This document shows positions 32,694-54,104 of a stretch of DNA of 64,000 nt, piece after piece. The stretch is from an uncultured delta proteobacterium (GTDB lineage Bacteria > Desulfobacterota > Binatia > UBA9968): NCBI GenBank assembly GCA_963745035.1, contig CAVUVW010000014.1:160001-224000 (forward strand). Direction: 5' to 3'. The notes under the pieces are model-generated. The model was given only the letters and a program-made list of their open reading frames with translations. It was not told where the DNA came from and did no database searches. Each line of letters opens with the position of its first letter. The stretch's first letter is position 1. The position numbers and the translations under genes are program-made.

Positions 32694-32781
32694 ACTTGTA
32701 TGATGGATGTCGGCTCTGAACCGGGAGTGCTCTGCTACAATGCCCGAAACGCGAAAGGCATTGTGCAAGGAGGCACTCAGC

Positions 32782-33915
32782 ATGGGACACAAAGCGTTTA
32801 TACCACAAGAGTACGATGTGTTTGCGGGCTTGGACGTAGATAAAAGAAGCATCTCGGTGACCTTTAGCAACCATCAGCAAGGATTTGTCCGATCGTTGCA
32901 CATGCCGTACAGCGTGGAGCACTTGCTCAAGCACGTACGCAAGCATTATCCCGATCAGAAGGTTGCGTTTGTCTATGAAGCTGGACCGACGGGGTATGGA
33001 TTGTATGATGGGCTTTCGGCCAGGGGTATAACTGCTTGGTGGCGGCACCTTCGATGATCCCTCGAGCTCCCGGGCAAAGAGTCAAAACCAATCGCCTCGA
33101 CAGCCGAGGGTTGTCGGAGAGCTTGCGCGGTGGACAGTTGAAGAGCATTCAGTGCCTTCGCCCATTTATCGAGAGCTTCGCCATCTCACTCAGCTGCGCG
33201 ACACCTTGGTCAGTGAAGTGGCGGGGATGAAGCAGCGGATTCAATCGCTGTTGCTGTTTGAGGGGATCGCTTTCCCAGCGGCTCCCGCTGGGAGCCGCTG
33301 GTCTTTGAAAGTGAAGAGCCAACTGAGGAAACTTCAGTGCTCTAAGAGCATGCGCTTTAAACTCGATCAGTTGCTCGACAACGTGGAGTTTTCTGAGAAG
33401 CAGGTCGTGAAAGTGACCAAAGAGATTCGCAAGCTCTGTCAGAACGATCCTGAACTGGCGCAGTGCATGAAGTATATGATGAGCGTTTGTGGCATCGGCT
33501 GGATTGTGGCCAGTCAGCTCCTGGCTCGTATCGGTGATTGGCGGGAACTTAAAAACGTGCGTCAGCTGGCAGGGTTTTTGGGGCTGGTTCCGAGTGAGGA
33601 CTCTACGGGAGAGAAAACCGATCGAGGCTCGATCACCGCACGGGACATGGCCGCCTGAGGAGTAAACTCATCCAAGCGGCCTGGTCGGCGATTCGCCAAG
33701 ATGGTGAACTTCGGGAGTTTTACAGTTCGGTATGCCGCAGACACCCGCGGCATATGGGTCCGCGAGTCGCCATCGTCGCCGTGGCGCGCAAGCTCAGCAC
33801 CCGGATTGCTGCGGTGTTGATGGAACAACGGCCCTATGTGATGAGACAAAAAGTTCATTCAGCTCCTTTGACCCAAGAGGAGACATCGCCCCAGGGAACG
33901 GCTCGACGACTTTGA
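32782..33915 (+). pseudogene. IS110 transposase with three 1-bp deletions (~33020, ~33151, ~33637); real decay or sequencing error
   Basis: Direct comparison with the intact copy at 52670-53806. Confidence 0.7.
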
Positions 33916-34115
33916 GAACCGGGAGAAAGAAACTCCTGACGGTTCGATCCTTGAGACAGAGATCCCGGGGCTTTGTGCCTTAGAGAGGGGCGCATTTTAA
34001 GTCAGTGTGACGGCCGGGTGCCGTGCCACGCATAGCAGCAAGTCTCTCTTGGCCGGGAAAGAAGAAGGGATAAACTAAGAGCATTCGCGGTGTAGCGACT
34101 TGACATCCACATAGC
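33916..34115 (+). ncRNA. Candidate bridge/seek RNA region of IS110 copy 1
   Basis: Same as 53807-54006 except G33929; junction-matching CATAGCAG-CAAGTCT at 34031-34045. Confidence 0.7.
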
Positions 34116-34171
34116 AGCTAGTCGAAGGACTCCGATAATTTGTTTGGCAACCAGCTAATCGATAACCCACT

Positions 34172-51193: not shown

Positions 51194-51271
51194 GTTTTTC
51201 TCCTTTGGCTGATGTTCTCTCAGTTCTCAATTGACATAGCACTGCGTTGTTGAATATTCATCTTGGATGAA

Positions 51272-51432
51272 GGTTCAAGCTATTCAATGGTTCGACACGC
51301 TCACCATGAGCGGCTCGGATTCCGCTCGTCCTCAGCGAAGTCGAAGGATGGGCTCCGTTCAAAACGTCTTGAACGGTTTGAACGGAGGCATCGCGCCGGT
51401 TGAACGGAGTGACCGAAGGGAACGGTTGAACG
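51272..51432. repeat. Composite GTTCAA element containing an uninterrupted REP hairpin (empty IS110 target homolog)
   Basis: TTCAA-[TGGTTCGACACGCTCACCATGAGCGG...CCGCTCGTCCTCAGCGAAGTCGAAGGA]-TGGGCTCCGTTCAA...TTGAACGGAGTGACCGAAGGGAACGGTTGAACG. Confidence 0.88.
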
Positions 51433-52494: not shown

Positions 52495-52508
52495 ACGCTC
52501 TAGCAAGT

Positions 52509-52581
52509 GTTCAAAACGTTCAAGCCGTTCAATGGTTCGACACGCTCACCATGAGCGGCTCGGTTTGCCGCTCGTCCTGAG
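52509..52581. repeat. Composite GTTCAA/REP element, left part (split by IS110 copy 2)
   Basis: GTTCAAAACGTTCAAGCCGTTCAATGGTTCGACACGCTCACCATGAGCGG...CCGCTCGTCCTGAG; near-identical to 51283-51335. Confidence 0.88.
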
Positions 52582-52669
52582 ACTTGTATGATGGATGTCG
52601 GCTCTGAACCGGGAGTGCTCTGCTACAATGCCCGAAACGCGAAAGGCATTGTGCAAGGAGGCACTCAGC

Positions 52670-53806
52670 ATGGGACACAAAGCGTTTATACCACAAGAGT
52701 ACGATGTGTTTGCGGGCTTGGACGTAGATAAAAGAAGCATCTCGGTGACCTTTAGCAACCATCAGCAAGGATTTGTCCGATCGTTGCACATGCCGTACAG
52801 CGTGGAGCACTTGCTCAAGCACGTACGCAAGCATTATCCCGATCAGAAGGTTGCGTTTGTCTATGAAGCTGGACCGACGGGGTATGGATTGTATGATGGG
52901 CTTTCGGCCCAGGGGTATAACTGCTTGGTGGCGGCACCTTCGATGATCCCTCGAGCTCCCGGGCAAAGAGTCAAAACCAATCGCCTCGACAGCCGAGGGT
53001 TGTCGGAGAGCTTGCGCGGTGGACAGTTGAAGAGCATTCACGTGCCTTCGCCCATTTATCGAGAGCTTCGCCATCTCACCCAGCTGCGCGACACCTTGGT
53101 CAGTGAAGTGGCGGGGATGAAGCAGCGGATTCAATCGCTGTTGCTGTTTGAGGGGATCGCTTTCCCAGCGGCTCCCGCTGGGAGCCGCTGGTCTTTGAAA
53201 GTGAAGAGCCAACTGAGGAAACTTCAGTGCTCTAAGAGCATGCGCTTTAAACTCGATCAGTTGCTCGACAACGTGGAGTTTTCTGAGAAGCAGGTCGTGA
53301 AAGTGACCAAAGAGATTCGCAAGCTCTGTCAGAACGATCCTGAACTGGCGCAGTGCATGAAGTATATGATGAGCGTTTGTGGCATCGGCTGGATTGTGGC
53401 CAGTCAGCTCCTGGCTCGTATCGGTGATTGGCGGGAACTTAAAAACGTGCGTCAGCTGGCAGGGTTTTTGGGGCTGGTTCCGAGTGAGGACTCTACGGGA
53501 GAGAAAACCGATCGAGGCTCGATCACCCGCACGGGACATGGCCGCCTGAGGAGTAAACTCATCCAAGCGGCCTGGTCGGCGATTCGCCAAGATGGTGAAC
53601 TTCGGGAGTTTTACAGTTCGGTATGCCGCAGACACCCGCGGCATATGGGTCCGCGAGTCGCCATCGTCGCCGTGGCGCGCAAGCTCAGCACCCGGATTGC
53701 TGCGGTGTTGATGGAACAACGGCCCTATGTGATGAGACAAAAAGTTCATTCAGCTCCTTTGACCCAAGAGGAGACATCGCCCCAGGGAACGGCTCGACGA
53801 CTTTGA
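52670..53806 (+). CDS. IS110-family transposase/recombinase (378 aa)
   Basis: AAGGAGG RBS. RuvC-like GLDVDK / YEAGPTG / KTNRLD; C-terminal GIG, GLVPSEDSTG (catalytic Ser region), AIVAVARKL. Confidence 0.96.
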   Translation: MGHKAFIPQEYDVFAGLDVDKRSISVTFSNHQQGFVRSLHMPYSVEHLLKHVRKHYPDQKVAFVYEAGPTGYGLYDGLSAQGYNCLVAAPSMIPRAPGQRVKTNRLDSRGLSESLRGGQLKSIHVPSPIYRELRHLTQLRDTLVSEVAGMKQRIQSLLLFEGIAFPAAPAGSRWSLKVKSQLRKLQCSKSMRFKLDQLLDNVEFSEKQVVKVTKEIRKLCQNDPELAQCMKYMMSVCGIGWIVASQLLARIGDWRELKNVRQLAGFLGLVPSEDSTGEKTDRGSITRTGHGRLRSKLIQAAWSAIRQDGELREFYSSVCRRHPRHMGPRVAIVAVARKLSTRIAAVLMEQRPYVMRQKVHSAPLTQEETSPQGTARRL

Positions 53807-54006
53807 GAACCGGGAGAAACAAACTCCTGACGGTTCGATCCTTGAGACAGAGATCCCGGGGCTTTGTGCCTTAGAGAGGGGCGCATTTTAAGTCAGTGTG
53901 ACGGCCGGGTGCCGTGCCACGCATAGCAGCAAGTCTCTCTTGGCCGGGAAAGAAGAAGGGATAAACTAAGAGCATTCGCGGTGTAGCGACTTGACATCCA
54001 CATAGC
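53807..54006 (+). ncRNA. Candidate bridge/seek RNA region
   Basis: Stem CCGGGA/TCCCGG encloses TCCTGA and TTCGA (target-like). Stem CGGCCGGG/CTTGGCCG encloses CATAGCAG and CAAGTCT (both strands of the circle junction). Confidence 0.75.
53991..53996 (+). promoter_or_regulatory. -35 half (TTGACA) of the circle-junction promoter; -10 half TATGAT at 52587-52592
   Basis: Joining the ends gives TTGACA-TCCACATAGCAGACTTG (17 bp)-TATGAT. Confidence 0.85.
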
Positions 54007-54008
54007 AG

Positions 54009-54104
54009 CGAAGTCGAAGGATTCGCTCCGCTCAAACGTTTTGAACGGCTTGAACGCAGGCGCCGCGCCGGTTGAACGGAGTGACCGAAGGGAACGATTG
54101 AACG
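54009..54104. repeat. Composite GTTCAA/REP element, right part
   Basis: CGAAGTCGAAGGATTCGCTCCGCTCAAACGTTTTGAACGG...TTGAACGGAGTGACCGAAGGGAACGATTGAACG; matches 51336-51432. Confidence 0.88.

Follow-up and report, generated by a model that had tools for sequence, protein, structure and literature searches.

RNA-guided recombinases of the IS110 family of insertion sequences are under development as genome-writing tools. In IS621, the core dinucleotide is CT (PMC11208158), and the handshake guides, which adjoin the core in one loop, are described as pairing with non-cognate DNA after strand exchange (PMC11208158, PMC13626964). Elements of the IS1111 group are described as having subterminal inverted repeats of 7-17 bp with short terminal extensions (PMC11187229, PMC11208160) and a C-terminal transposase motif, GL-P----S(t)G (PMC11187229). 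In their seekRNA, a match to the top strand lies 5′ of a match to the bottom strand (PMC11187229), and the transposase co-purifies with RNAs of two sizes, about 82-96 and 148-172 nt, that derive from the non-coding region (PMC11187229, PMC13604230). In this report, we describe the guide RNA predicted for an IS1111-type element in a 64-kb stretch of contig CAVUVW010000014.1 from an uncultured delta proteobacterium (the window; all coordinates are positions in it, read 5′ to 3′ on the forward strand).

An earlier, sequence-only reading had flagged a short stretch downstream of the transposase gene of this element as matching both strands of the element's circle junction. We found that this stretch very probably forms the 3′ arm of a donor-binding loop, within a bridge/seek RNA encoded at the element's 3′ end. 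The RNA has a conserved structure, and three of its guide segments co-vary with the sequences that flank the element.

The element and its family

The element (copy B, to distinguish it from a second copy, A, in the window) occupies 52582..54008 on the forward strand and is 1,427 bp long, including one AG core. Its boundaries were set by comparison of the two copies in the window, by the five copies in the genome and by an empty site. The identity shared by copies A and B extends from ACTTG to CATAGCAG, and all five genomic copies read ...AG|ACTTG at the left and CATAGCAG|... at the right. The unoccupied target repeat (51326..51348), which reads CGTCCTCAG|CGAAGTCGAAGG, holds a single AG and thereby fixes AG as the core dinucleotide. 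Because of that single AG, the element consists of ACTTG...CATAGC plus one AG, with no target duplication; the target's own AG stands beside copy B at 52580-52581. The circle junction that follows from these boundaries is CATAGC-AG-ACTTG, which is the junction that the sequence-only reading had predicted.

The left end (52582..52599) comprises the extension ACTTG (52582-52586) and the subterminal inverted repeat TATGATGGATGTC (52587-52599), which matches the right end at 53993-54004. The right end (53991..54008) comprises TTGACA (53991-53996), overlapped by its own copy of the inverted repeat, GACATCCACATA (53993-54004), then GC and the core AG (54007-54008). When the ends are joined, TTGACA is placed 17 nt from TATGAT (52587-52592). 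These hexamers are the predicted -35 and -10 elements of a putative junction promoter, of the kind described for IS1111-type elements (PMC11187229).

The transposase gene (52670..53806, forward strand) encodes 378 amino acids (aa), with a DEDD/RuvC-like N-terminal domain (PF01548, 54.3 bits, residues 15-158) and a C-terminal Tnp domain (PF02371, 77 bits, residues 231-315). This is the domain arrangement of the IS110 family, and the protein scores 218 bits against the NCBIfam model NF033542, “IS110 family RNA-guided transposase” (cutoff 140). Site-specific insertion without target duplication, around a core dinucleotide common to both junctions, is also as in that family, as is the element-encoded RNA with target and donor loops that co-variation and conserved structure predict. 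Further, several features are those of the IS1111 group: subterminal inverted repeats with short extensions (ACTTG at one end, GC plus core at the other), a non-coding region of 202 nt downstream of the gene (53807-54008) vs. 88 nt upstream (52582-52669), the C-terminal motif in the form GLVPSEDSTG, and a match complementary to the top strand (53798-53805) placed 5′ of one complementary to the bottom strand (53838-53846). The protein is longer (376-386 aa in most close relatives) than the 330-350 aa given for the IS1111 seekRNA elements in PMC11187229, where these figures are a quoted size range and no strict criterion. Judged by its inverted repeats, its downstream non-coding region and the GLVPSEDSTG motif, the element is an IS1111-type member of the IS110 family.

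Structure of the predicted guide RNA

Relatives of the transposase are plentiful in soil metagenomes, with at least 5,383 at E ≤ 1e-30 among 8,000 candidates scored. A one-protein scan of genome contigs returned three close loci only, a scan of viral contigs found no relative, and the closest plasmid-borne relatives are 29-35% identical to the transposase. We fetched 3 genomic and 80 metagenomic loci at 74-94% protein identity, and located the ends of most of them via the inverted repeats. Eighty-eight loci were read; 82 have the loop, 78 have a right flank of at least 10 nt and an in-register guide, and 79 have an anchored left end. Counts of structure and invariance refer to 62 distinct relatives. 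Within this close family, variation is found in the flanks and in parts of the RNA; the right end and the core are constant, and so, for the most part, is the left end. Elements from another phylum at 43-50% protein identity (G420, G523 and G493), and one at 35% identity whose RNA was read by eye (G264), served as distant relatives.

The predicted guide RNA spans at least 53779-53941 and is organized around five helices, in which 97.7% of the alignment cells are paired, vs. 32-50% for slid partners. At 74-94% identity, these helices show little co-variation. Once the relatives at about 50% identity are included, 18 of 32 pairs change on both sides, vs. 1.9 in shuffles (0/500), in an alignment whose distant members were fitted to a covariance model, a procedure that favours the structure. 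That model, which was built from the alignment and the proposed structure, matches RNA in G420, G523 and G493 with E-values from 1e-18 to 2e-8. Among relatives of the window's own phylum at 29-37% identity, it found nothing with default filters, and its best E-value with the filters off was 0.34. Two other pairings were considered and rejected. The 5′ strand of a closing helix AGAGAG (53873-53878) / CUCUCU (53935-53940) varies and is partly deleted, with its 3′ strand constant, and the 3′ partner of a pairing CCCGG (53855-53859) / CCGGG (53944-53948) varies freely.

Assembled RNA libraries offer a weak hint of expression. Four metatranscriptome runs, belonging to three studies, yielded contigs over 53742-53928; entire contigs correspond to 53781-53861, 53759-53862 and 53759-53870, and they differ in letters precisely at guide positions 53801-53805. 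Contigs end at 53861/53862 in two runs of one study, and at 53870 in another study. The hint is weak because contigs cannot show RNA ends or levels and because DNA carry-over is possible. No joint corresponding to the circle junction was seen in these libraries. One joint skips 1,427 bases (52578 to 54006); it fits an uninterrupted copy of the target repeat, and need not derive from this locus.

The donor loop

The donor loop (53889..53931) lies downstream of the target loop, from which it is separated by a hairpin (53866..53884; GUGCCU / GGGGCGC side) with 97.8% of cells paired and three pairs that vary one-sidedly, from U-G to C-G. It is composed of a 5′ arm, UAAGUC (53889..53894), a conserved hairpin (53896..53920; GUG..ACGGC, loop, GCCGU..CAC) and a 3′ arm, G-CAUAGC-AG-CA (53921..53931). 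The hairpin has 98.6% of its cells paired, and five of its eight pairs change on both sides with distant relatives, as in GCCUC/GAGGC and CUCUC/GAGAG.

The strings of the flagged stretch lie where the sequence-only reading had placed them, with CATAGCAG at 53922-53929, CAAGTCT at 53930-53936, and the proposed stem strands CGGCCGGG and CTTGGCCG at 53902-53909 and 53939-53946. The 15-mer formed by the first two, CATAGCAGCAAGTCT, occurs exactly twice in the window, once in each copy (34031-34045 and 53922-53936). About 0.05 matches at two mismatches or fewer are expected by chance, and none of 100 shuffles contained three matches; the third match, with two mismatches, is the right junction of copy A (34110-34124).

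CAUAGC and the core AG (53922..53929), in sense orientation and identical to 54001-54008, would pair with the bottom strand of the right end. AUAGCAG is kept in nearly all relatives, the first guide base being free (C/U/G/A), and in the close family the guide CATAGCAG is invariant together with the right end. The distant elements supply co-variation for this guide that the close family cannot. In G264, the end is ATATC-AG and the guide AAUAUC-AG; in G493, the end is CACAGC-AG and the guide CACGGC-AG, with the pairing preserved via G-T. The sequence-only reading had taken CATAGCAG as a guide for the right end plus core and had proposed covariation between loop and element ends as a check. That covariation is present for CATAGCAG in these two elements, and it fails at the next base, 53930, which follows the target flank.

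The bases that follow the core (53930..53931) are the candidate handshake positions. We scanned every column of the aligned 3′ region against every flank position for mutual information, and 53930 paired with the first right-flank base (R+1) came out at the top of all column pairs (0.92 bit). The two are identical in 76 of 78 loci (C-C in 56, G-G in 17 and T-T in 3). On a tree built from the transposase body alone, 53930 changes at least 11 times. Nine independent contrasts fall on well-supported branches; 53930 and the flank move together in eight to nine of them and in opposite directions in none (median p 0.008). The left-end variant is unchanged in about eight of the nine, and 53930 has no link to the left end. 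More distant relatives agree in part: the post-core bases are CC in G493 and G420, with CC in the flank, and U in G523, with T in the flank; in G264 they mismatch the flanks. We thus read 53930 as a handshake guide that tracks the target in sense orientation without tracking the left end. Position 53931 tracks the second flank base weakly.

In one G523 locus, L118, an inner site, AATTTGCAG|CTCG, lies about 60 nt upstream of the right end. The locus's donor-arm guide, AAUUUGCAG, fits it more closely than it fits the outer CATAGCAG|CTCA, which points to a nested or composite right end in L118.

The target loop

The target-binding loop (53779..53862, 84 nt) is closed by GCCCC-A-GGG (53779-53787) pairing with CCC-GGGGC (53855-53862), and its 5′ end falls inside the transposase reading frame. 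The closing helix has 99% of its cells paired, and six of its eight pairs change on both sides once the relatives at about 50% identity are included. Between the two arms stands a hairpin (53807..53836) of two helices, with 94.6% and 97.6% of cells paired; three of six and three of four pairs, respectively, change on both sides with distant relatives.

The 5′ arm carries the right-target guide, CGACUUUG (53798..53805), which is complementary to the top strand of the right flank from +1 to +8; in many relatives, the complement covers the core G plus +1 to +7 instead. Counted over 58 distinct guide/flank pairs, the guide is paired with the element's own flank at 7.17 of 8 positions, vs. 5.24 (sd 0.15, maximum 5.88) for 2,000 permuted flanks. 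There are about 29 right-guide classes in the 78 loci, and many matches are exact, including those to quite different, non-repeat targets (L033, L034 and L087). After 53930, the highest mutual information in the scan is that between this guide and R+1 to R+5, and 53801-53804 with the first right-flank bases form one of the two clusters. Distant relatives conform: in G420 the guide CGCCUGG-C faces the flank CCAGGCG, and in G264 both target arms differ between the two copies, in accordance with the respective flanks. Another candidate for this role, CGACTTG (53988-53994), was rejected; it belongs to the conserved -35/inverted-repeat region and is constant whatever the flank.

The right-target guide extends over the final codons of the transposase gene and into its stop codon, TGA (53804-53806), and the C-terminal lengths of the relatives therefore differ. 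The C-terminal residues E-E-T-x-P-Q-G-T (53767-53806 region) show no variation among 11 proteins of 78-93% identity. They are encoded by the 5′ strand of the target-loop closing helix, so that protein and RNA both constrain this sequence. The residues beyond them change along with the guide.

The 3′ arm carries the left-target guide in sense orientation (53838..53848), namely AUCC, a bulged U, UG, the core AG (53845-53846) and AC (53847-53848). This AC equals the first two left-end bases and would occupy the handshake position. With one bulge, 2.69 of four variable positions match the element's own flank by identity or wobble, vs. 2.32 in the control (sd 0.095, maximum 2.64), and none of 2,000 permutations reaches the observed value. 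An ungapped register was rejected, as it gives no signal (1.71 vs. 1.66). The core is followed by AC in 66 of 70 loci; all 70 have a left end that begins with AC. In G420 the corresponding arm is AAAU-AG-AC and the flank AAAT-AG.

Candidate readers of the left end

Which segment would read the left end is a matter of graded likelihood. The leading candidate, at slightly below an even chance, is the 5′ arm of the donor loop, which is the complement of ACTTG plus the core G. It pairs with left-end bases 5 and 4 in 79/79 and 78/79 loci, with transitions only (UA/CA/CG), and mismatches bases 3, 2 and 1 in 12, 3 and 10 loci. In L008, an arm reading CGAGU accompanies a left end reading ACTCG.

A second candidate, which we consider distinctly less probable, is the tail AGUCUCUCUU (53932..53941), invariant in the 62 distinct relatives. 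Its first five bases, AGUCU (53932-53936), complement the core and left-end bases 1-3. They are constant in the close family and hence uninformative there about reading of the left end. AGUC is kept in the relatives at about 50% identity, all of whose left ends begin with AC. That neither segment reads the left end is a little less probable again.

Apart from the left end, GAGAC (53844-53848, core plus handshake) in the target loop and GUCUC (53933-53937) in the tail are mutually complementary and both invariant. They are candidates for an RNA-RNA contact between the target loop and the donor-side tail.

Copies of the element and their insertion sites

Copy A (32694..34117, forward strand, 1,424 bp) carries the same loop at 34031-34045. 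Its transposase frame is broken: relative to copy B, there are three single-base gaps inside the gene, and the longest forward open reading frames are 116 and 168 aa. Copy A gave no match in the protein search. It has either decayed or carries assembly errors. In L004, another copy in the genome, the length is greater by 2 bp and the protein match ends at residue 359. Three of the five genomic copies look intact.

The target sequence is GTCCTGAG|CAAAGTCGAAGG. All five copies occupy sites of the type ...TGAG | C..GTCGAAG, with flanks that read ...(G)TCCTGAG | element | C-N(1-3)-AGTCGAAGG. The target is a palindromic repeat family, ...CATGAGCGG...CGTCCTGAG-N-GTCGAAGG...TTGAACGG..., stretches of which are found in the window at 51270-51420 and at 52510-52581 with 54009-54100. 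At occupied sites, the spacer from AG to GTCGAAGG is 3 to 5 nt. Twenty further unoccupied sites in the genome match CCTGAGC-N(2-4)-GTCGAAGG, and the reversed control pattern matches none. Two loci have left flanks doubled in tandem just outside the element: about 21 nt ending ...CGTTCGTCCTGA in L006, and GAGACAGTGTAT in L008. These doublings may be footprints of earlier insertion and excision. Elsewhere in the window, a full-length c-di-GMP-II riboswitch aptamer (RF01786) was matched at 435-519 on the reverse strand, with 55 bits vs. a gathering score of 53.5.

Discussion

Our results make it very likely that the flagged stretch belongs to the donor loop of a guide RNA whose plan recurs across the family. 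This bears out the broader claim of the sequence-only reading, namely that an IS110/IS1111-type element has its guide RNA encoded in this region. The RNA would work as follows. The transposase would carry the guide RNA, whose pairing with circle junction and target repeat would involve both strands of each, around their common AG. The 5′ arm of the target loop would complement the top strand of the right target flank, followed by a hairpin and by a 3′ arm consisting of the sense left flank, the core AG and the first two left-end bases. The donor loop would likewise present a 5′ arm, the conserved hairpin and a 3′ arm made up of sense AUAGC, the core AG and base 53930. After strand exchange, the two handshake positions would pair with non-cognate DNA, as in IS621. 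Binding by the protein, pairing with DNA, the order of strand exchange and the activity of the junction promoter are predicted features of this scheme.

Several observations weigh against it. The 202 nt from 53807 to 54008 fold no better than shuffles (z = -0.29), and Rfam 15 offers no family, and hence no curated model, for comparison with this RNA: at the gathering score over the whole window only the c-di-GMP-II riboswitch was matched, and at E ≤ 10 over 52500-54100 there were three chance-level matches. The RNA, its ends and its binding to protein are predictions from nucleotide sequence. The assignment of CAUAGCAG as the right-end reader draws on identity and on three more distant elements, because the right end and core are constant at 74-94% identity. 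In L118, the guide AAUUUGCAG stands opposite an outer end reading CATAGCAG, and the inner AATTTGCAG site makes this locus ambiguous. For the second handshake base, 53931, agreement with the second right-flank base is limited to 26 of 78 loci, and the signal for the left-target guide is modest. The 5′ arm, for its part, has no complement to the left end in one G523 locus (L113) and in G264, and a T-to-C change at left-end base 3 (ACCTG) is uncompensated in 12 loci.

The alternative that survives best is the arrangement put forward in the sequence-only reading, in which CAUAGCAG and CAAGUCU abut in one hairpin loop, with one guide for each strand of the junction and no intervening hairpin. In this element, the 7-mer CAAGUCU is the exact reverse complement of AG+ACTTG. 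The invariance of AGUCU, and the retention of AGUC where left ends begin with AC, are consistent with it, and in G493, where the left end is ACCTG, the bases after one handshake base (CAGUUCU) complement AGACCTG at six of seven positions. The exact complement stands at this locus, but as a left-end guide the 7-mer is not supported across the family. Its first two positions are unpaired with the left end in 17/79 and 29/79 loci, and the first tracks the target flank instead. The uncompensated ACCTG left ends count here as well, and G264 has no such complement after the core. Further, the stem CGGCCGGG/CTTGGCCG that was supposed to enclose the loop is not conserved. It can be drawn with eight pairs (two of them G-U), but neither the minimum-free-energy fold nor the centroid fold of 53807-54008 contains it, and across the 62 relatives the paired share of its cells is 54.8%, a value equalled by 175 of 500 shuffles. 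The conserved hairpin at 53896-53920, 5′ of the right-end guide, separates the arms of the donor loop, contrary to the claim that no hairpin intervenes, and the target loop has no segment equivalent to the second guide. The geometry would also be awkward, since the first guide stops at the core and the second would start five bases away, on the other strand, without a linker. We consider this arrangement improbable, and prefer the donor loop with its two arms on either side of a hairpin. It is very improbable that the CATAGCAG match is a relic without RNA function, a copy of the right junction left inside the element by a former nested or tandem insertion. CATAGCAGCAAGTC is identical (14/14) to the right junction of genomic copy L002, and L118 carries an inner second end-like site, but more than 60 distinct elements, as well as the relatives at 43-50% identity, have the segment at a constant position of a conserved, co-varying structure, and its post-core base changes with each element's own target, where a relic would drift.

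The predicted RNA resembles that of the IS1111-family seekRNA elements (ISEc11, ISPa11 and ISKpn4; Siddiquee et al. 2024, PMC11187229) as described there. The shared features are the downstream non-coding region, subterminal inverted repeats, a palindromic repeated target without target duplication and the same order of guides. The 84-nt target loop is close in length to the short RNA (82-96 nt), and the approximately 165 nt through the donor loop are close to the long RNA (148-172 nt). The seekRNA matches described in that paper are to the target, whereas the donor loop and handshake positions are resolved here as well. The RNA also resembles the bridge RNAs predicted for the IS1111 group (Durrant et al. 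2024, PMC11208160), in that it is placed at the right end and has donor- and target-complementary bases in loops. By the description in that paper, many of those have a donor multi-loop, whereas a simple internal loop with a hairpin is found here.

The likeness to IS621 is of a different kind. Among solved structures, only the IS621 and ISCro4 chains match the transposase at E ≤ 0.001, via the C-terminal domain, to which the likeness to the IS621 protein (E 2.7e-11) is confined. The RNA plan, as IS621 is described (Durrant et al. 2024, PMC11208160; Hiraizumi et al. 2024, PMC11208158), is much closer, with two internal loops whose guides flank a hairpin, one arm that ends guide-core-handshake, and a handshake base that matches non-cognate DNA (PMC11208158). 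On the opposite strand, the core reads CT, and both target and donor loops read left guide, hairpin, right guide-core-handshake. By this comparison, the plan is that of IS621, with the opposite strand transcribed and the RNA placed at the opposite end of the element; the distinct architecture suggested by the sequence-only reading becomes the IS621 layout when it is read on the opposite strand. There are also differences. The IS621 RNA is at the 5′ end; here, the RNA lies at the element's 3′ end and shares sequence with the last part of the reading frame. With the transposase gene as reference, every guide has the mirrored polarity. The 5′ arms extend over no more than one base of the core, and the programmable donor bases are bordered by 12-13-bp inverted repeats. 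The IS1111 passages of one review (PMC13604230) make no mention of a handshake guide for IS1111-type RNAs, and in PMC13626964 IS1111 occurs only in the reference list. We see the element as a well-resolved, divergent example of the RNA-guided mechanism described in 2024, and not as a new kind of system.

These comparisons raise a bolder and rather unlikely possibility, with two linked parts: that IS1111-type guide RNAs are strand-mirrored IS621-type bridge RNAs with a working handshake, and that AGUCUCUCUU is a further functional module. If the mirrored reading were true, the strand antisense to the transposase gene (5′-CT-3′) would be exchanged first. With every retargeting, the transposase would also acquire a changed C-terminal tail, because the right-target guide lies in the last codons and the stop codon. 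Were AGUCUCUCUU such a module, it could be a second, abutting reader of the core and left end, or a reader of the left junction GAG-AC, and would represent a donor-recognition layout unseen in IS621.

For the host genome, this is an ordinary mobile element aimed at a repeat family. For the IS110 family, its interest lies in a lineage that is very abundant in soil metagenomes and that has been naturally retargeted many times. IS110-type members alone have solved structures, judged by the IS621 and ISCro4 matches above. The right-guide classes and the changes at the handshake position, taken together, amount to a natural mutagenesis series that marks the programmable positions of an IS1111-type RNA, and they make the handshake position recognizable from sequence data alone. 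Finally, the overlap of a guide with the end of the coding frame matters for any reprogramming of such elements.

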